Origin: Planctomycetota bacterium
Lineage (GTDB): Bacteria; Planctomycetota; Brocadiia; JAADGH01
Reading direction: 5' to 3'
Assembly: GCA_013152475.1 (NCBI GenBank)
Contig: JAADGH010000213.1
Coordinates: forward strand, 2,271-66,270
Length of the DNA: 64,000 nt
Shown piece after piece: positions 7,992-18,268 of this stretch. A model generated the notes under the pieces. That model worked only from the letters and a program-made list of their open reading frames with translations. It was not told where the DNA came from and searched no databases. The position numbers and the translations under genes were made by a program. The stretch's first letter is position 1; each line of letters opens with the position of its first letter.

Positions 7992-10900
7992 ATGCGTAAC
8001 GTCCGGATTGCATGTCACATCCTCCTGCTCCTTGCCCTCCCTGCTGCGGGGGCCTCCGCGCAGGGCGCAGGGGACGACATCGGCAGCCGCGCGGCGCTCA
8101 AGCGCACCATCGAATACCTCTCTTCCATCAACAGCCGCGTCACCGGCTATGCCGGCTGCGACGAGGCGGCTGCGTATGTGGAGATGCGCTTCCGCGAGTT
8201 GGGCCTCAGCAATATTGCGAGCGAGGAGTTCAAGCTGGCTGTGCCCGTGGACAGGGGGGCGCTCTTGACCGTCGGGAAGGGAAAAAACGCCAAAGAAATC
8301 CTCATCCACAGCCTGTGGCCCAACATGGTTCGCACCTCCAAGCTCCCGCCCACGGGGATCACGGGCTGCCTTATATACGGCCGCGGGGGCTACATGCTGG
8401 ACTTCAATGGGAAGGATGTCAAGGACAGCATCGTCTTGATGGAATTCAGCTCATCCACTCGCTGGCTGAACGCCGCACAGTTGGGCGCAAAGGCGATCAT
8501 CTTTATCGAACCACCTGGGGATATTCTGTTCCGCACCGATGCGGAGGAAAAATTCTTCGAGATTCCACTGCCCATGCCCCGCTTTTGGATCGCAAAGGCC
8601 GATCTCGCGGCGCTCGTGAAGGCGTTGGGCGTGAAGGCCCCACCGGTCGAGAACCGCCGCAAGCTCGAAATCAGCTTGCGCGAGGTCTTGTCCAAGAAGC
8701 GGCACTCCGTTCGGATCAAGGCCGACATGGCCTGGGAGATGCGCACGGCGCGCAACATCATCGCCACCATTCCCGGCACCGACCGCGAGCTTCGCAAGGA
8801 TACGATTATCCTCGAGGCCTACTATGATTCCATCTCGATCGTCCCCGGCCTGGCGCCGGGCGCTGAATCGACCTGTGGCCTGGCGATGATGCTCGAGCTG
8901 GCGCGATGGGCCGTCAAGCACCCCCCCCGGCGAACCCTCAAATTCGTTGCGGCGCCGGGGCATTTCGAGGCCCTGGCGGGCATCCGAGAGTATTCGAAGA
9001 AGCACTACTACACCCGGTACGAGCCGGAAGAGTCCTCAGAGCAGGAGGCCCGCGAAGAAGAAAAGGCCGAGCTGGAACAGGCCGAGCGCGAGGGGGTGCG
9101 AAAGCCCGGCCACCTCATGATCTCCCTCGATCTGTCCAGCGGGGAGAACCAGCTGGCTCTTTTCTACAAAGGGCATTTCTACGACCAATGGGCCGCTTGG
9201 GGCGAAGGACAGGAGGGGCGGCACCAGCGCCAGTTCATCCGCCTCGCCGAGCGAATCATGACGTACTACGAGGACCTCGACTCCGCCGAGTTTGACTCCA
9301 CACTCCTCAACGGCGTCGTGCCGAAACGGGATCGAGACTGGCAATCGATGGTCCCAGGCAAGATTGCCCTCGACAGCGAGGTGGTATGTCTCGCAGGCCG
9401 GCAGGCCGTGGCGTTTGTTACGGCCAACGACTCCCGGAGTTATGTAGACACGCCGCTGGATGTCGTCGCGAAGGTTCGATTTGACAATCTCGAGGCCCAG
9501 GCGAAGCTCTTGATCGCCCTGTTTGGGAAGATCTTCAACGACCCGGAGCTCCCGCTCACCGATAAACTGCACCAGGGATGGGTGGGCGACTCCTTCGGCA
9601 AGGTGCGCGAGGACCTCCTGCTGGCATACCTTCCCGAGACGGCCATCCCCGGCGCCGTCGTCGGCGTCCTGCTCACCAACGAAACGAAACCGCTGTTCGG
9701 CGTCCGGCCGCGGGCCTACACCATCAGCGAGTCGCATGGATTGTTCGAGTTCTTCGGCCTGGACCGGAACGCGCGGCCCTACTGGCGGAATGTTGTGGCC
9801 TTCAAACTGGACCCCAAGGACGGCAGCATCTCGTGGGCCTTGAAGCCGCGAAGCGAAAACCGTCAGTTCGGCCTGCATCCGATCTGGTGGCGGAGGCGGA
9901 ATAAGGACTGGACGAAACGGGCCATCGACATCCGCCTGCCCGTGTTTCAGTGCACCTCATGGGTGATCTACGACCTGATCGACCAACTGGACCTGCAAAG
10001 CCTGGGGAAGCTGACGGTGCTGGACGCGAGCACAAACGCGAAGCCGCGCAAGGCCGTCTACTTCCTGGGGGAGGTGGGGGAGGGCACGTCCTTTTCCGAA
10101 CCGTGCGCCGTGGTATTTACCGAGCCGGACACGCACATCAAGCTGACCATGGAGCCGCGCGGCCGTGGCATCCAGCAACAGCGCCTTACCCTCCTGAATG
10201 TTCCCCCCGGCATCGTGACGGTCGTCAATGTGCGGACCAACAAGGAACTGGCCATATTTCCGGGGCACAAGGGCGAGGTGGACGCGGTGGCCTTCGCCCC
10301 CGACGGGGTGACTGTCGCGTCGGGCGGCGAGTCGGGGCTCTGCCGCATATGGCCCCTGGCCGTTCACAAGGAGGGGGAGACCGTGAAGGGGGAGGTGCTT
10401 CGGGGACATACGGCCCGGATCAACGACCTGGATTTTTCGCCCGACGGCCGATTCCTGGTGTCGGCGTCGGACGATCACACGTGCCGCGTCTGGGACTGGA
10501 AACGCAAGGAAGAGATCGGGCGGTTCGAGCAGCACGGGGCGCCGGTGCTGTCTGCTCGGTTCTCCCCGGACGGGCGGCGCGTGGTTTCGGGCAGCGCCGA
10601 CGGGAAGGTGTGGATCTGGCCGATTCGCCCTGACAAGAAGGCCAAGATCGAACCGAAGAGCGTTCTCCTTGCCGGGCACACAGGCGGGGTGAACGCGGTC
10701 GCGTTTTCTCCGGACGGAACGCGGGTGGTTACCGGTTCCGACGACATGACGTGTCGCGTCTGGGACGCGGCCACCGCAAAGGTCCTTTGTACGTTTGCGG
10801 GGCACCGCGGCGCGGTGAACGCCGTCGCGTTCTCGCCGGATGGGAAGCGTGTGGCGTCAGGGTCGGACGATACCACATGCCGCGTCTGGAACGCAGAGAA

Positions 10901-13859
10901 CGGGACCGGGCAACTGGTCCTTGAGGGGCACACGGGCGACATCCTGACCCTTCTCTTTTCGCGGGACGGGAAGGAAGTCGTCACGGCAGCAGATGACGGG
11001 ACCAGCCGCCGGTTCGACGCCGCTACGGGCAAGGAAATCCAGCGGCAGGACGTACGGGCCTGGGACGTGGCGCGGCTGGGCTTGCGAAAGGGGGACCCGA
11101 TCCTTGCCATGATGGACCCCTCTCGGCGCAAAGAGAGCCAGGAGGGCGTCGGTTTCGCGCCGGTACCCGGCAAGTCCGAGAATTTTATCTACAACACCTC
11201 ATACCGCGTGGCCCGGGATATGTGGGGGCTGGATGCCTTCCGGATCGAGAAGCTGCGCGAGACGGGCATCGCAAACAAGCGTGTGGATGAGCTGCACTCC
11301 CTGGCCGGGCGGTGTCTCCACAAGGCGAAGAAGCATTGGCGACAAAGGAACTACGACAAATTCCTCGATGCGGTCCGATCGTCCTGGGCCTTCGAGTCGG
11401 GGGCCTACCCCCATGTCCACCGGACGGCGAATGACGTGCTCATCGGGATTATGTTCTACTTCGCCGTGCTTATGCCCTTTGTTTTCTTCTGTGAGCGGCT
11501 GCTCATCGCCGCCGCCGACATCCGCCGACAGCTCATGTGGCTGGGGATCATCTTTCTGATCGTCTACCTCATCCTGTATGGGGTGCATCCGGCCCTCCGG
11601 CTGTCGAGCACGCCGATTATCATTATCGACGGGTTCTTCATGATCGCCTTGGGTCTGCTGGTGATCTTCTATATCCTGAACAAGTTTAATCAACAGATGG
11701 AAGACGCCCGGGCCAAGTCCACGTTTGTCCACCGGACCGATGTGGCCCGGGGCTCTGCGGCGGCGGCAGCCTTTCTGCTGGGCATCTCGAACATGCGGAA
11801 GCGAAAGGTCCGCACGGCCCTGACGTGCATTACCTTGATCTTGCTCACGTTTTCGCTTCTTTCGCTCGCGTCCTTCGAGACCGAGCTGCGCTCCTACAAG
11901 GTGGCCACAAAGTACAACAAACCCTACGAGGGAGTGCTCCTTCGGCGGCTCAACTGGGCGCCCATCGAGGAGCACGCCTATTATACACTTTTGGAACACT
12001 TCCGCGACGCCGGCGGGCTGTGCTGCCTTCGGTCGTGGATTTCTCCGGAACGGGGCCAGAACCTTGCTCTGGATGTGACCAACGTGGAGAACCCGCGGTG
12101 GGGGGCCTATGCGGCCAGGGGCGTTCTGGGGCTGGATCCGCGCGAGCCAGAACTGACCGGGCTGGACAGACACCATCTCAAAGGCGCACGATGGTTTACC
12201 GGGAAAGAGGAACGGTATCCCTTCGTCTGCCTGCTGCCAAAACATATGGCTGAGGAAATCGGAATCGAACTGAAGCCGAACCAGCCGCCGCCGCAGGTGC
12301 GACTGCTTGGCAACGACCTGGATGTGATCGGAATCTTCGACGACTCCATCGGCATGCTCGACCACATTCGTCTCGAACACTTTCGCAAGCCTCCTGAAGG
12401 CGAGGATTTGGACGCCTGCAAGAAGGGCGAGTGGTATGTCTGCCCGTACTGTGGGGAGCAGTTCGCCTCCAAGACAGGTTTCTACGGCACCACGGACCTT
12501 GACAGCGAGCCGCTCACACCGGTGGACTTTGCAGAGATGCAGGAGCGTCACGAGGAAGAGGAGTCTCTGGACCTGCAGGAGGAGGACGAGAGCGGGACCA
12601 AGAGCACGAAGAGCGAGCTGCTGCCGGACCCCGATGACTACTACCACCAGGATCCGGGCAACGTGGTGATCGTGCCCAACGACCTCGCCATCAAGATGGG
12701 CGCGACGATTCGCTCGATCGGTGTGAAGCTGCAGGGCCGGAAGGTAAAGCAGATCGTCGAGAAGTTCACGCAGCGGACGAATCTGCTGCTCTTCACCGGT
12801 GTCCCCGTTTCGCCGGAGGAGGAGGCGCGGGGGTCGAAGGGCGTTTACCTCTACCGGTCGAGAGGGCAGCTCTCGGTGAAGGGCATTGCGAACCTGCTTG
12901 TGCCGATGGCGATTGCCGGCCTGATCGTCTTCAACACCATGCTTGGCTCGGTGTATGAGCGAATGAAGGAGATCAGCATCTACGCCTCGGTGGGTCTGGC
13001 GCCTATGCACATCTCCGCCCTCTTTCTCGCGGAGTCGACGGTGTATGCCATCATCGGCGCTGTGGTGGGGTATCTGATCGGGCAGATTGGGGCGCGGTTC
13101 CTCACGCTGAATTTCCCGAACATCGGGCTGAACCTGAACTATTCCTCGACGGCCGCGGTCTGGGCCACGATGATGGTGATCGGGATCGTCATTCTGTCCA
13201 CGGCCTATCCGGCGCGCAAGGCGGCGCAATTGTCCGTGCCCGATGAGACGCGGAAGATGAAGCTGCCGAAGCCGGAAGGGGACATATGGAAATTCGTGTT
13301 CCCCTTCACCGTCAGGCACACGGAGACGATTGCCGTGAGCATGTTCCTCCACGACTACTTCACCTCCCACGACGAGGACGCACTGGAGGGGTTCACTGCG
13401 GACGAAGTGGGTCTGGCCGAGAAGGAAGCGGGGGACAGGACGGTGTACATCCTGACGAGCAAGGTATGGGTGCAGCCGCTTGACATGGGCATCAGCCAGT
13501 GGGTGAAGATCACGACCTTCCCCGATCCCACCGATGAACAGCTTTACCTGATGGAGTTCGAAATCCACCGAGAGAGCGGCGAGGTGGAGGCATGGGGGCG
13601 GATGAACGTGGGGTTCTTGCGGTTGGTGCGGAAGCAGCTCCTCATCTGGCGGCTGGTCGAGTCCGACTACAAGAAACGGCTCGACATGCGCGGACGCGCC
13701 GTTCTGGCCGGAGAGCCCGTGCCCCCGCCGTATGAGGATGAGCCGGAGGCCGAGGAGACCGAAACGGCCTCGGAATCCGCGCAGGGGGGAGAGGATGGCG
13801 ACGACGAGGCGCTCGATCCCGAAGAGTTCAGGAGTGAAGGAAGCGGAACGACTACGTGA
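7992..13859 (+). CDS. 1955-aa fusion protein: signal peptide, degenerate PA/M28 peptidase-like domain, WD40 propeller, 3 TM helices and an FtsX/MacB-type permease with a large extracytoplasmic loop and acidic tail
   Basis: AAGGAAGGG RBS. Signal peptide ILLLLALPAAGASAQG. M28-like block LEAYYDSISIVPGLAPGAESTCGLAMMLELAR. At least six WD40 units (GH..FSPDG....DD.TCRVWD). FtsX TM1 RKRKVRTALTCITLILLTFSLL. FtsX C-terminal helices LVPMAIAGLIVFNTMLGSVYERMKEISIYASVGL...AYPARKAA. Confidence 0.9.
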   Translation: MRNVRIACHILLLLALPAAGASAQGAGDDIGSRAALKRTIEYLSSINSRVTGYAGCDEAAAYVEMRFRELGLSNIASEEFKLAVPVDRGALLTVGKGKNAKEILIHSLWPNMVRTSKLPPTGITGCLIYGRGGYMLDFNGKDVKDSIVLMEFSSSTRWLNAAQLGAKAIIFIEPPGDILFRTDAEEKFFEIPLPMPRFWIAKADLAALVKALGVKAPPVENRRKLEISLREVLSKKRHSVRIKADMAWEMRTARNIIATIPGTDRELRKDTIILEAYYDSISIVPGLAPGAESTCGLAMMLELARWAVKHPPRRTLKFVAAPGHFEALAGIREYSKKHYYTRYEPEESSEQEAREEEKAELEQAEREGVRKPGHLMISLDLSSGENQLALFYKGHFYDQWAAWGEGQEGRHQRQFIRLAERIMTYYEDLDSAEFDSTLLNGVVPKRDRDWQSMVPGKIALDSEVVCLAGRQAVAFVTANDSRSYVDTPLDVVAKVRFDNLEAQAKLLIALFGKIFNDPELPLTDKLHQGWVGDSFGKVREDLLLAYLPETAIPGAVVGVLLTNETKPLFGVRPRAYTISESHGLFEFFGLDRNARPYWRNVVAFKLDPKDGSISWALKPRSENRQFGLHPIWWRRRNKDWTKRAIDIRLPVFQCTSWVIYDLIDQLDLQSLGKLTVLDASTNAKPRKAVYFLGEVGEGTSFSEPCAVVFTEPDTHIKLTMEPRGRGIQQQRLTLLNVPPGIVTVVNVRTNKELAIFPGHKGEVDAVAFAPDGVTVASGGESGLCRIWPLAVHKEGETVKGEVLRGHTARINDLDFSPDGRFLVSASDDHTCRVWDWKRKEEIGRFEQHGAPVLSARFSPDGRRVVSGSADGKVWIWPIRPDKKAKIEPKSVLLAGHTGGVNAVAFSPDGTRVVTGSDDMTCRVWDAATAKVLCTFAGHRGAVNAVAFSPDGKRVASGSDDTTCRVWNAENGTGQLVLEGHTGDILTLLFSRDGKEVVTAADDGTSRRFDAATGKEIQRQDVRAWDVARLGLRKGDPILAMMDPSRRKESQEGVGFAPVPGKSENFIYNTSYRVARDMWGLDAFRIEKLRETGIANKRVDELHSLAGRCLHKAKKHWRQRNYDKFLDAVRSSWAFESGAYPHVHRTANDVLIGIMFYFAVLMPFVFFCERLLIAAADIRRQLMWLGIIFLIVYLILYGVHPALRLSSTPIIIIDGFFMIALGLLVIFYILNKFNQQMEDARAKSTFVHRTDVARGSAAAAAFLLGISNMRKRKVRTALTCITLILLTFSLLSLASFETELRSYKVATKYNKPYEGVLLRRLNWAPIEEHAYYTLLEHFRDAGGLCCLRSWISPERGQNLALDVTNVENPRWGAYAARGVLGLDPREPELTGLDRHHLKGARWFTGKEERYPFVCLLPKHMAEEIGIELKPNQPPPQVRLLGNDLDVIGIFDDSIGMLDHIRLEHFRKPPEGEDLDACKKGEWYVCPYCGEQFASKTGFYGTTDLDSEPLTPVDFAEMQERHEEEESLDLQEEDESGTKSTKSELLPDPDDYYHQDPGNVVIVPNDLAIKMGATIRSIGVKLQGRKVKQIVEKFTQRTNLLLFTGVPVSPEEEARGSKGVYLYRSRGQLSVKGIANLLVPMAIAGLIVFNTMLGSVYERMKEISIYASVGLAPMHISALFLAESTVYAIIGAVVGYLIGQIGARFLTLNFPNIGLNLNYSSTAAVWATMMVIGIVILSTAYPARKAAQLSVPDETRKMKLPKPEGDIWKFVFPFTVRHTETIAVSMFLHDYFTSHDEDALEGFTADEVGLAEKEAGDRTVYILTSKVWVQPLDMGISQWVKITTFPDPTDEQLYLMEFEIHRESGEVEAWGRMNVGFLRLVRKQLLIWRLVESDYKKRLDMRGRAVLAGEPVPPPYEDEPEAEETETASESAQGGEDGDDEALDPEEFRSEGSGTTT
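10263..11024 (+). repeat. intragenic tandem ~126-nt (42-aa) WD40-coding repeats
   Basis: Six consecutive units with recurring nucleotide strings, e.g. gacga...acgtg(c/t)cgcgtctgg(g/a)ac, encoding DD.TCRVW(D/N). Confidence 0.85.
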
Positions 13860-15818: not shown

Positions 15819-17477
15819 ATGAAAGCAAGCACAAAGAGGTTCCTGATTGCGTTCGGCTATCTCGCCACGCTGGCGTGGATCGTCCCCGCGTTCATGCACA
15901 TCGTGTATCAGTCTGTGGAACAGCACCACATCTTCGCCATGCTCCGAACCGTCCGGTACAATCAAGACGAACCGGCGATCGGCGAGGCCGAGAAGGGCCT
16001 CAGCGAGTTCGGCTTGGAGGGCCTCATCTATGTCATTCAGGAATTGAAACAAGATGAGGAGCGTGACCGGCGAATCAAACTGACCAATGTGTTGGAGCGA
16101 TTCCTGACGGGCGATTCGGACCGCGGCCGCTGGGGATGGGGCGAGAATCACGCCCTGCGTCAGCTTCTCGATACCTGGCCGAAAACACCCGGGCGAAGGA
16201 TGGCCGAGCTGAACATGGAGCAGATGAAGGAGATCCTGTTACACAGGAAACCGGGGGAACTCAAGCCGCACGAACGGCGGCAGCTCCTGAACTTCGCAAT
16301 TGAGTATGCCCTGATCACCTTGCGGTGGGACATTGACGAGAAGACCCAGGTCTTTCGGAACCGAGGGGAGCGGCTTCGGTTCAGCGAGTTTTTGGCGCTT
16401 GTGCGCAGCGAGCAGCTCCGAATGCAATTCCAGGTGACGGAGGCGAAGCCCGAAGTCGAGCTCAGCGGCGATCAGATGAAGCGCGCGGAGGACTTCGCCA
16501 AGGATTGGCTGGACAAGGAGGCGGGGCTGAGTAACAAGCTTGGACAATCCGAAGAGGCCGATCTCGCCTGGAAACTCCAGGGCTTCCTCGGCGGAGCCCC
16601 CGTTGCCTTCGTCCCCGAAGAGTGCGACAAGATGATCCGGATACTGGAGGACCAGCGGGCGAAGGAGGCGATGCTTTCCCCCAAGCTGTTGCCTGCGGCA
16701 TACGCCTCCTTGCAGCAAAAACTCCGCATGTTTTCGGACGGGGCGGCGGTGCGCTTTCCGGATGAGGACATGAAAGACGTCTGCACGAGGCTGGAGAAGT
16801 TCAAGGATGACTACATCAGCTACGCCGTCGAGATGAAGTTCAAAAAAACCACGGAAGGCCACTTTCTCAAACTGAAAGACGCAGGCGTCAATCTGTTCGA
16901 CATCCGCAGGGACGAGGTGCCCGTTGTCCTGAAGATCATCCACGAATGCCGGCGGGAGTATGCCTACGCGCGGGTCCAGATGGCCCGCACGGCGCGGCGG
17001 ATCGTTCTCGACCTGACGGGGCGGCGGGTTCGGTTTCAGACCCTTGTGAGAGACCTGAGCCCGGACCTGGGAATTTTCGAACATATCAAAAAGGCATGGA
17101 AGGCCAAGAACGACGAGATCGTCATGCTCGATCTCATCGACCTGCTGCAGGACGATGACTTCGGCGTGCGAGTGAACATCTCCGATGCGCTCGTCGCCAT
17201 CGGAAATCCCGCCGTCTATTACCTGGTCGAACAACTGAAGAAGGAGCGGGTCAACTCCACGGCTGTCGTCCCCACGCGGGACAAGAGCCGGGCCGAGCGG
17301 GAAAAAGAGCTCAACGCCAAGAACACCCAGGCGCGCAAGGCGGTGGCCATGATCCTGGGGCGAATCGGATCGAAGGAAGCGGAGTTTCAACTCCAGCTGA
17401 TGACTCGAGACCCCGTCATTGGCGCAACCTGCCACAAGGCCCTCGAACGGCTGCGCAGGCAGAAAGCGAGGAAATGA
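15819..17477 (+). CDS. N-terminally anchored alpha-helical protein with C-terminal HEAT/PBS-lyase-like repeats
   Basis: TM helix FLIAFGYLATLAWIVPAFMHIVY. C-terminal LLQDDDFGVRVNISDALVAIGNPAVYYLV and ARKAVAMILGRIGSKEA repeats. The start lies 7 nt after the upstream stop. Confidence 0.78.
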   Translation: MKASTKRFLIAFGYLATLAWIVPAFMHIVYQSVEQHHIFAMLRTVRYNQDEPAIGEAEKGLSEFGLEGLIYVIQELKQDEERDRRIKLTNVLERFLTGDSDRGRWGWGENHALRQLLDTWPKTPGRRMAELNMEQMKEILLHRKPGELKPHERRQLLNFAIEYALITLRWDIDEKTQVFRNRGERLRFSEFLALVRSEQLRMQFQVTEAKPEVELSGDQMKRAEDFAKDWLDKEAGLSNKLGQSEEADLAWKLQGFLGGAPVAFVPEECDKMIRILEDQRAKEAMLSPKLLPAAYASLQQKLRMFSDGAAVRFPDEDMKDVCTRLEKFKDDYISYAVEMKFKKTTEGHFLKLKDAGVNLFDIRRDEVPVVLKIIHECRREYAYARVQMARTARRIVLDLTGRRVRFQTLVRDLSPDLGIFEHIKKAWKAKNDEIVMLDLIDLLQDDDFGVRVNISDALVAIGNPAVYYLVEQLKKERVNSTAVVPTRDKSRAEREKELNAKNTQARKAVAMILGRIGSKEAEFQLQLMTRDPVIGATCHKALERLRRQKARK

Positions 17478-18268
17478 TGGGGGCGCGCATCTTCAGGGTC
17501 CTGTTGGCGGCGGCCGTCATTTCCATTTTTGCTTCCGTGGCCATCGGGACGTATCTGCGCGGCAAACAGGCGTGTTTTGTGGTGACCCTTTCCCCCGAGG
17601 GCGAGCCCGCAGAGGGCGTCATCCAGGCGGTGGTCAAGGCGCTTTCCCGCCGGACCGCCCAGTATGGCAAGGACTTCGGGGTTGTTCGGAGCACGATCTC
17701 TGCGGAGGAAGACGGTCCCATCACGATGAAGATCTGGGCGGAGGGTGAAATCGATGGGTTTCTGCGCTGTCTTACGCAGACGGGGGAGATGGAGTTTCGC
17801 CTCGTGAAGGGAAGGGGGAAGGATCAAAAGCCTGATGCCGAGCACGAGCTGGTCTCATGGCGCCAGGAGTACTATAGCATTCGGGAACTCGGCCAGAAGG
17901 TCGTGGAGGTGATGCCGTTCCTCGTCAGAAAGAAGCCGGAACATCGGGTGCGGTCCTTTGCGTCCGTATCGTGCCGGACGGAAGGGCTGGGGGGCAACCC
18001 CGTCATTACACTCCAGCTCCATCCCGAGGACGCCCGCGCCCTGAATCAGGTCCGTCGGGCGAACACGGGGAAGGAGATGGCTGTGGTGATCGACGGGGCC
18101 GTCCTGGTCTCCGCGGTGGTCGCCGGTTCGGTGGAGACGGACCGGATCGAGATTCGCGGCATCCGCGGCGTGATAGAGGCCCGTCGTGTCGCCGCCATGC
18201 TGGAAATCGGCGCGTTGCCGGTGAAACTCACGGTTACGAAGGTTGAGAAGGTCAAATCAGCGACATGA
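17474..18268 (+). CDS. membrane-anchored SecD P1-head-like domain protein (no SecDF transmembrane core)
   Basis: ATGA overlap with the upstream gene. TM helix FRVLLAAAVISIFASVAIGTYL. GEMEFRLV and GGNPVITLQL..DARALNQVRRANTGKEMAVVIDGAVLVSAVVAGSVETDRIEIRG.....EARRVAAMLEIGALPVKL match the SecD periplasmic head pattern. Confidence 0.72.
   Translation: MMGARIFRVLLAAAVISIFASVAIGTYLRGKQACFVVTLSPEGEPAEGVIQAVVKALSRRTAQYGKDFGVVRSTISAEEDGPITMKIWAEGEIDGFLRCLTQTGEMEFRLVKGRGKDQKPDAEHELVSWRQEYYSIRELGQKVVEVMPFLVRKKPEHRVRSFASVSCRTEGLGGNPVITLQLHPEDARALNQVRRANTGKEMAVVIDGAVLVSAVVAGSVETDRIEIRGIRGVIEARRVAAMLEIGALPVKLTVTKVEKVKSAT

Follow-up and report, generated by a model that had tools for sequence, protein, structure and literature searches.

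To our knowledge, the P1 domain of SecD has been studied in the context of SecDF only. In SecDF, the head of this domain (P1-head) has an amphiphilic cavity to which precursor proteins can be crosslinked, and it alternates between the F and I forms; the base (P1-base) pairs with the P4 domain of SecF (PMC5974789). The head movement is coupled to proton flow through the transmembrane (TM) core, with an Asp in TM4, an Asp in TM10 and an Arg in TM11 as the essential residues of the proton pathway, and both the movement and the ligand of the P1-head are still debated (PMC5974789). This study concerns g5, a gene for a P1 domain carried on a single TM helix, which lies in an operon of six genes (g1 to g6, Table 1) of a Planctomycetota bacterium. 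The stretch of DNA analysed, here referred to as the window, comprises 64,000 nucleotides of contig JAADGH010000213.1 (assembly GCA_013152475.1, positions 2,271 to 66,270 of the forward strand).

The fold, architecture, clade, gene linkage and phyletic pattern of g5 and its relatives are described here. Together with g4, an anchored HEAT-like protein encoded directly upstream, g5 is read as a lineage-specific periplasmic accessory subunit of an envelope machine formed by g2 and g3, a reading that is drawn from gene context and co-occurrence and is held at about even confidence. The P1 domain itself is already known, and "P1 head subdomain-containing" proteins have been flagged by automatic annotation; what is new is that the stand-alone proteins are monophyletic, that their pairing with a TM-HEAT protein is conserved, and that they depend on a system of MacB-type and OPT-like membrane proteins. 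Literature searches found no functional description of, or literature on, stand-alone SecD P1 proteins, DUF6785, or the g2-g3-g4-P1 cluster. A natural and conserved P1 protein without a motor shows that P1 is able to work outside the context of the proton-driven core, and with its small soluble domain the g5 family lends itself to finding out what the P1-head binds. Since P1 and g4 mark one discrete variant, they also provide a handle on a large, unstudied envelope system of ATP-binding cassette (ABC) and OPT-like proteins that occurs across several phyla.

A complete P1 domain without a translocase core

In an initial annotation of the window, g5 was described as a free copy of the SecD periplasmic head, with one N-terminal TM helix and without the 6+6 TM body of SecDF. 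The match to SecD is significant by both profile and structure. Against the Pfam family SecDF_P1_head (PF22599, gathering cut-off 27 bits), g5 scores 54.5 bits (E=1.2e-14), with residues 148-250 covering positions 12-114 of the 114 in the profile, and its best match in the PDB by phmmer is SecDF of T. thermophilus (3aqo/3aqp, E=3e-11). In the AlphaFold2 model (predicted local distance difference test score, pLDDT, 78; predicted template modelling score, pTM, 0.70), a long helix at the N-terminus is followed by a base of beta-alpha-beta-beta-alpha-beta order with an inserted head, and the last strand returns to the base. When this model was searched with Foldseek, the best 11 PDB matches were all SecDF (E=5e-15 to 3e-4, ~247 aligned columns), with E ~1e-14 for 3aqo and 5yhf and a template modelling score (TM-score) of 0.70 when normalised to the isolated P1 domain of 3aqo. 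The closest known counterpart of g5 is the P1 domain of SecD and SecDF, as represented by the structures 3AQO, 3AQP and 5YHF (T. thermophilus) and 5XAN and 5XAP (D. radiodurans) and by the models PF22599, PF21760 and TIGR01129. The claimed likeness to the SecD head is borne out, with one correction: g5 holds the whole P1 domain, base and head, and not the head alone. As in SecD, TM1, P1-base and P1-head follow in this order and with the same fold, and the head carries the motifs G..A.V.DG ... GALP. The secD model TIGR01129 aligns across residues 43-260 (profile positions 31-238) at 62 bits, far under its cut-off of 244, because the membrane core is absent.

A single TM helix was found in g5 (residues ~6-29), as the initial annotation had stated; a second hydrophobic stretch (202-220) forms beta strands of the head in the AlphaFold2 model and is no second TM helix. 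With flanking charges of +3 (N side) and +1 (C side), the helix is predicted to be N-in, which would place P1 in the periplasm as it is in SecD. From its sequence, g5 is predicted to be a bitopic inner-membrane protein that consists of the equivalent of SecD TM1 and a complete P1. A SecD or SecF half comprises six TM helices with a SecD_SecF_C domain, and a Pfam scan gave no match to this domain (PF02355) in g5, which stops at residue 264, right after P1. Unlike SecD, it lacks TM2-TM12, and with them the helices that bear the TM4 Asp, TM10 Asp and TM11 Arg, as well as the P4 partner of the P1-base. Without the TM core there is no proton-driven motor, and g5 is not a translocase. A canonical SecDF, for which the initial annotation had proposed a check, is encoded elsewhere in the genome, on contig C187, as a fusion of 1212 amino acids (SecD_SecF_C twice, P1 head, SecD_1st and Sec_GG). 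The gene context of g5 is also unlike that of SecD, being an ABC-type envelope cluster and not yajC-secDF.

The g5 frame encodes 264 amino acids without interruption, and all three peptide segments initially quoted from it are found in the translation. Its guanine-plus-cytosine (GC) content by codon position (0.65/0.44/0.78) is like that of its neighbours g4 and g6 and unlike that of overlapping alternative frames. ATGA overlaps join the g4 stop to the g5 start (17474-17477) and the g5 stop to the g6 start (18265-18268), in agreement with the proposed translational coupling to HEAT proteins, and the giant FtsX fusion that had been named with them (g2) lies in the same operon. A second in-frame ATG at 17477 is better spaced from a GAGG motif (17468-17471) than the ATG at 17474, and the database copy of g5 (P0002, 263 amino acids) begins there.

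A clade of stand-alone P1 proteins

A word-indexed search with g5 returned three close relatives only, and an exhaustive profile search with the g5 family gave 1266 matches, 71 of them at E<1e-10. The top ~60 profile matches are proteins of 250-290 amino acids that align end to end, each with one hydrophobic helix near the N-terminus. Stand-alone single-TM P1 proteins of 255-290 amino acids make up at least 55 clusters, all within one clade that is distinct from canonical SecD P1 domains. In a tree of 111 P1 regions, drawn from the best matches of the profile built on the stand-alone family itself, 68 stand-alone sequences form one clade (support of 100 in the Shimodaira-Hasegawa-like approximate likelihood ratio test, SH-aLRT) apart from the sampled canonical SecD/SecDF P1 domains. 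The g5 of the window groups with P0003, P0004 and P0005 (support 100), and it has the features by which clade members were defined, namely, a length of 255-290 amino acids, a single N-terminal TM helix, a full P1, and a placement within the clade and not with canonical SecD. The stand-alone TM1+P1 proteins are a clade of Planctomycetota that diverged from SecD.

The most conserved part across the clade is the head core, in which G199, D207, L243, G246, L248 and P249 are near-invariant. It is hardly credible that g5 is a functionless, decaying remnant of a secD duplication: the truncated architecture, and nothing else, speaks for this, but g5 stops exactly at the P1 boundary, the family has been kept at 20-70% P1 identity over at least five families with invariant head motifs, and g5 has a normal coding GC content, tight translational coupling and no frame disruptions, so that conservation effectively refutes the idea.

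A smaller consequence concerns annotation. In their sources, clade members are named "hypothetical", "SecDF P1 head subdomain-containing protein" or, wrongly, "preprotein translocase subunit SecD". The second name is given by the NCBI Prokaryotic Genome Annotation Pipeline (PGAP; e.g., MFP4027565.1 of Candidatus Brocadiia bacterium) and the third, which is misleading, by IMG on proteins of 275-285 amino acids; both groups belong to the same stand-alone clade (members with such names are P0034, P0014 and P0021), and the names are automatic and domain-based.

Gene linkage and phyletic pattern

P1 lies directly downstream of g4 in ~13 examined loci (the window, G001, L004, L024, L025, L027, L031, L050, L051, L052, L062, L066 and L068), and the complete order g2-g3-g4-P1 recurs in G001, L024, L027, L031 and L062 as in the window. 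These complete clusters belong to the lineage of the window (family f1 with close relatives from metagenomes), to family f21 (L062), and to two unplaced lineages (L027, L031). The same cluster is found at P1 identities of 70% (L003), 49% (L004) and 34% (L024), and it stands in unrelated genomic surroundings in L027 (without the WD40 propeller and without g6), L031 and L062. On short metagenomic contigs from other subclades (L025, L050, L051, L052), a g4 homolog is still directly upstream of P1.

The phyletic pattern was assessed in 61 genomes of the class and in an even sample of 301 genomes of the phylum. In the class, g3 is present in 34 of the 61 genomes (families f1, f2, f3, f5, f6 and f8), whereas g4 (24/61) and stand-alone P1 (20/61) are both confined to f1 and f5. 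Both g4 and P1 are present in 19 class genomes and both are absent from 36; g4 without P1 was seen in 4-5 genomes, all of them incomplete metagenome-assembled genomes (MAGs), and P1 without g4 in one genome that is 72% complete. A clade P1 is carried by ~8 of the 301 phylum genomes (families f1, f21, f54 and f66). The seven carriers besides the window genome (f21, f54, f66) have one to four g3 homologs each, and the four genomes with weaker P1-like matches of another type have no g3. Over five families, g3 is present in 27 of the 27 genomes bearing a clade P1. P1 has a conserved neighbourhood and co-occurs with g2, g3 and g4, despite unlinking in f5, f54 and f66. The association with g2 homologs that the initial annotation had raised is upheld as regards adjacency to g4, recurrence of the complete order, and presence of g3; it does not extend to a constant linkage, nor to every g2-g3 system.

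Several observations weigh against g5 being an accessory subunit of the g2-g3 machine. In family f66, a lone g4-P1 pair lies away from g2-g3. In family f5, of the same class as the window, P1 is found directly 3' of lptB on the same strand (10/10 loci from 10 genomes), and in family f54 (L063-L067) it comes after serS (seryl-tRNA synthetase), from which another gene separates it in some genomes; no g4 was detected in the P1-bearing f54 genomes, though g3 is there in one to four copies. The association of P1 with g3 spans five families only, g3 being common in the class background as given above, and many g2-g3 systems (f2, f3, f6, f8, and those of other phyla) work without P1 or g4. Beyond close relatives, TM1 of the stand-alone P1 proteins is unconserved, so that no conserved intramembrane docking surface is evident. 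The cavity residues of the P1-head are poorly conserved even among true SecDs (PMC5974789), which makes ligand binding unreadable from sequence. Finally, the link of g5 to g4 and g2-g3 is drawn from gene context and co-occurrence, and a physical complex is putative.

The lptB and serS neighbourhoods of P1 are read here as relocations and not as functional links. The f5 lptB beside P1 scores 318-324 bits against TIGR04406 (cut-off 240) and is the single LptB above this cut-off in each genome; that it might be a dedicated second ATPase was rejected, since one LptB per genome marks a housekeeping gene. P1 as a replacement of LptC was dropped as well, LptC-like domains being present in the P1-bearing f5 and the P1-less f4, and not adjacent to lptB-P1. 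Alternatively, LptB2FG of lipopolysaccharide (LPS) transport could be the primary partner of the family, with the window copy secondarily co-opted. The f5 loci, each with P1 directly after the sole lptB of the genome, favour such a role, but it is highly improbable: the lptB link is limited to one family, P1 follows serS in f54, LptC-like domains are shared by P1-bearing and P1-less families, and in the window genome itself lptB has dxr and rseP, and not P1, after it. The f5 genomes with lptB-P1 also have g2-g3, with a diverged g4 behind them (hhalign probability 93.6%), and tblastn of the operon proteins against the f5 loci gave no match near P1. In G019 (L053; G019:C121, 613-10808, - strand), g2-g3-g4-lptB-P1 are contiguous; this block bridges both gene contexts and suggests that an ancestral cluster was split in f5, which speaks against LptB2FG as the primary partner.

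Three further observations concern these genes. The f5 loci L007-L016 represent different genera (L017:15956-17880, - strand, is an example), and many f5 P1 proteins contain the motif S.L.RYL in the cytoplasmic N-terminus, before the TM helix. In another f5 genome (G039:C15:472101-473889), the g3 homolog has an internal TAA and the P1 match is fragmented, and the system may be decaying in this MAG. The lptB frame of the window genome (L043; G000:C63, 5220-6365, - strand) continues for ~140 amino acids past the LptB domain before dxr, either as a C-terminal extension or as an artefact of the listing of open reading frames.

A different explanation would be a Sec-associated helper, i.e., a free P1 arm by SecYEG or the canonical SecDF that passively holds emerging chains, for instance in the export of g2, g4 and g6 with their very large periplasmic domains, with its place in the operon reflecting co-expression with difficult substrates. 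P1 is the precursor-contacting part of SecDF (PMC5974789), every product of the operon has a signal or anchor sequence and a large predicted periplasmic domain, and the frequent position of P1 beside the housekeeping genes lptB and serS would fit a general role in envelope biogenesis. This helper role is nevertheless unlikely, as P1 occurs in g3-bearing genomes only (27/27) and almost always together with g4, genomes that have an equally large g2 but lack g4 have no P1, and a P1 without a motor is unable to pull, with a canonical SecDF already in the genome.

A putative accessory arm of an ABC-type machine

Two variants of the g2-g3 system were distinguished. Clusters without g4 and P1, seen in family f3 and in MAGs labelled Lentisphaerota, Verrucomicrobiota, Sumerlaeota and Planctomycetota, contain a small FtsX permease and one or two ABC ATPases, whereas clusters with g4, with P1 alongside or not, have no in-cluster small FtsX and ABC ATPase. 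The genomes of f1 and f5 have one unlinked ATPase each that is 61-64% identical to the in-cluster ATPases; in f4 genomes, which have no g2-g3, the best identity is 38-45%. In the window genome, a small FtsX (328-amino-acid frame) is encoded beside an ABC ATPase on contig C22 (L049; G000:C22, 6358-8257), unlinked to the operon; g2-g3 systems of other phyla have an in-cluster ATPase with 64% identity to this one. The genome also contains a second pair, g2'-g3' (L061; G000:C195, 4640-16422), with a g2-like open frame of ~3036 amino acids, and the contig ends right after g3'. The FtsX/ATPase pair of C22 is likely the motor of the window's machine or of its C195 paralog. A role of g4 and P1 as substitutes for the ATPase was rejected, as f1 and f5 genomes keep, at an unlinked site, an ATPase at orthologue level and a small FtsX; the retained ATPase indicates that g4 and P1 are add-ons to an ABC machine.

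In the mechanism proposed for the window, the g2-g3 machine would combine an OPT-like membrane protein with a giant permease of MacB/FtsX type whose M28/PA ectodomain is dead, and the small FtsX partner and ABC ATPase of the machine would be supplied from contig C22. The g5 protein would be a tethered periplasmic ligand-binding arm that docks with g4 onto the g2-g3 complex. By analogy with SecDF, its head would most likely keep the same job, i.e., transient and promiscuous binding of extended polypeptide in the cavity. If the head moves, the drive would have to come from a partner, e.g., from ATP-driven mechanotransmission via the FtsX periplasmic domain, and not from proton flow. The g5 protein resembles single-pass accessory subunits of mechanotransmission or extractor ABC transporters, such as LptC of LptB2FG and MacA of MacB: it is a predicted bitopic inner-membrane protein with a periplasmic domain, and its gene is linked to, or found in the same genomes as, an ABC system of MacB/FtsX type and, in one family, lptB. 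Unlike LptC and MacA, its fold is that of SecD P1 and not a beta-jellyroll or the hairpin of a membrane fusion protein, and its association with the machine is suggested by gene context.

P1 diverges faster than its neighbours: over the same genome pairs, identities are 30-34% for P1, 45-61% for g2 and 65-71% for g3. Such fast evolution is typical of accessory or regulatory subunits, and it would also suit a sensor or regulator that detects polypeptide in an unfolded or translocating state, or some other ligand in the periplasm, and adjusts the activity of a partner without mechanical handling of a substrate. A sensor of this kind is distinctly unlikely, however, with a cytoplasmic N-terminus of only ~5-25 residues that holds no recognisable output domain, and with no linked regulator gene in any examined locus. 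Extending the preferred reading of g5 and g4 as accessory subunits of the g2-g3 machine, it can tentatively be proposed, though with considerable doubt, that the P1 arm is an autonomous and transferable polypeptide clamp that was fitted, along with a TM-HEAT scaffold, to a MacB-type/OPT-like machine driven by ATP, in which ABC mechanotransmission would swing the head. The whole would then be an undescribed periplasmic system for capturing and moving proteins or peptides, combining a dead peptidase, a propeller, HEAT proteins, P1 and OPT-like channels.

Other genes of the operon

The features of the operon are given in Table 1. The AlphaFold model of g4 is all-alpha, with confident HEAT-like ends and a poorly predicted middle (pLDDT 62). 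The Pfam OPT model matches one of eight g3 homologs (E=5e-9). Downstream of P1, g6 is found in closer relatives only (G001, L004, L024, L025), and the operon is followed by the housekeeping genes purA, uppS, cdsA and phoH.

Table 1. Genes of the operon and parts of g5, with positions in the window
Feature	Position	Strand	Basis or remark
g1, DUF6785/DUF6784 polytopic membrane protein, 680 amino acids	5928-7970	+	domain scan
g2, 1955 amino acids: signal peptide, degenerate M28/PA domain, WD40 propeller, MacB/FtsX-type permease	7992-13859	+	domain scan
g3, polytopic, weakly OPT-like membrane protein, 651 amino acids	13856-15811	+	best-conserved cluster member
g4, N-terminal TM + all-alpha HEAT-like protein, 552 amino acids	15819-17477	+	most consistent gene directly upstream of P1
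g5, stand-alone SecD TM1 + P1 (base + head) protein, 264 amino acids	17474-18268	+	alternative start ATG 17477
g5, single N-terminal TM helix (residues ~6-29)	17489-17560	+	hydrophobicity, AlphaFold2 model
g5, N-terminal part of P1-base (residues ~31-115), approximate bounds	17564-17818	+	AlphaFold2 secondary structure, TIGR01129, Foldseek
g5, P1-head core (Pfam residues 148-250)	17915-18223	+	Pfam, phmmer, family conservation
g5, last strand, rejoining the base (residues 252-260)	18227-18253	+	AlphaFold2 secondary structure
g6, N-terminal TM + HEAT-repeat protein, 862 amino acids	18265-20853	+	domain scan

The membrane proteins g1 and g3 have the motif ERLxFPL in common, and their profiles align collinearly but weakly (hhalign probability 13%), which makes them tentative paralogs at most. 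In three loci of family f3 (L056, L057, L060), the gene order is g2-g3-g1-ABC-small FtsX-ABC, whereas g1 precedes g2 in the window. As g1 is found in the f3 clusters too, at another place, it is part of the system, and its position is variable.

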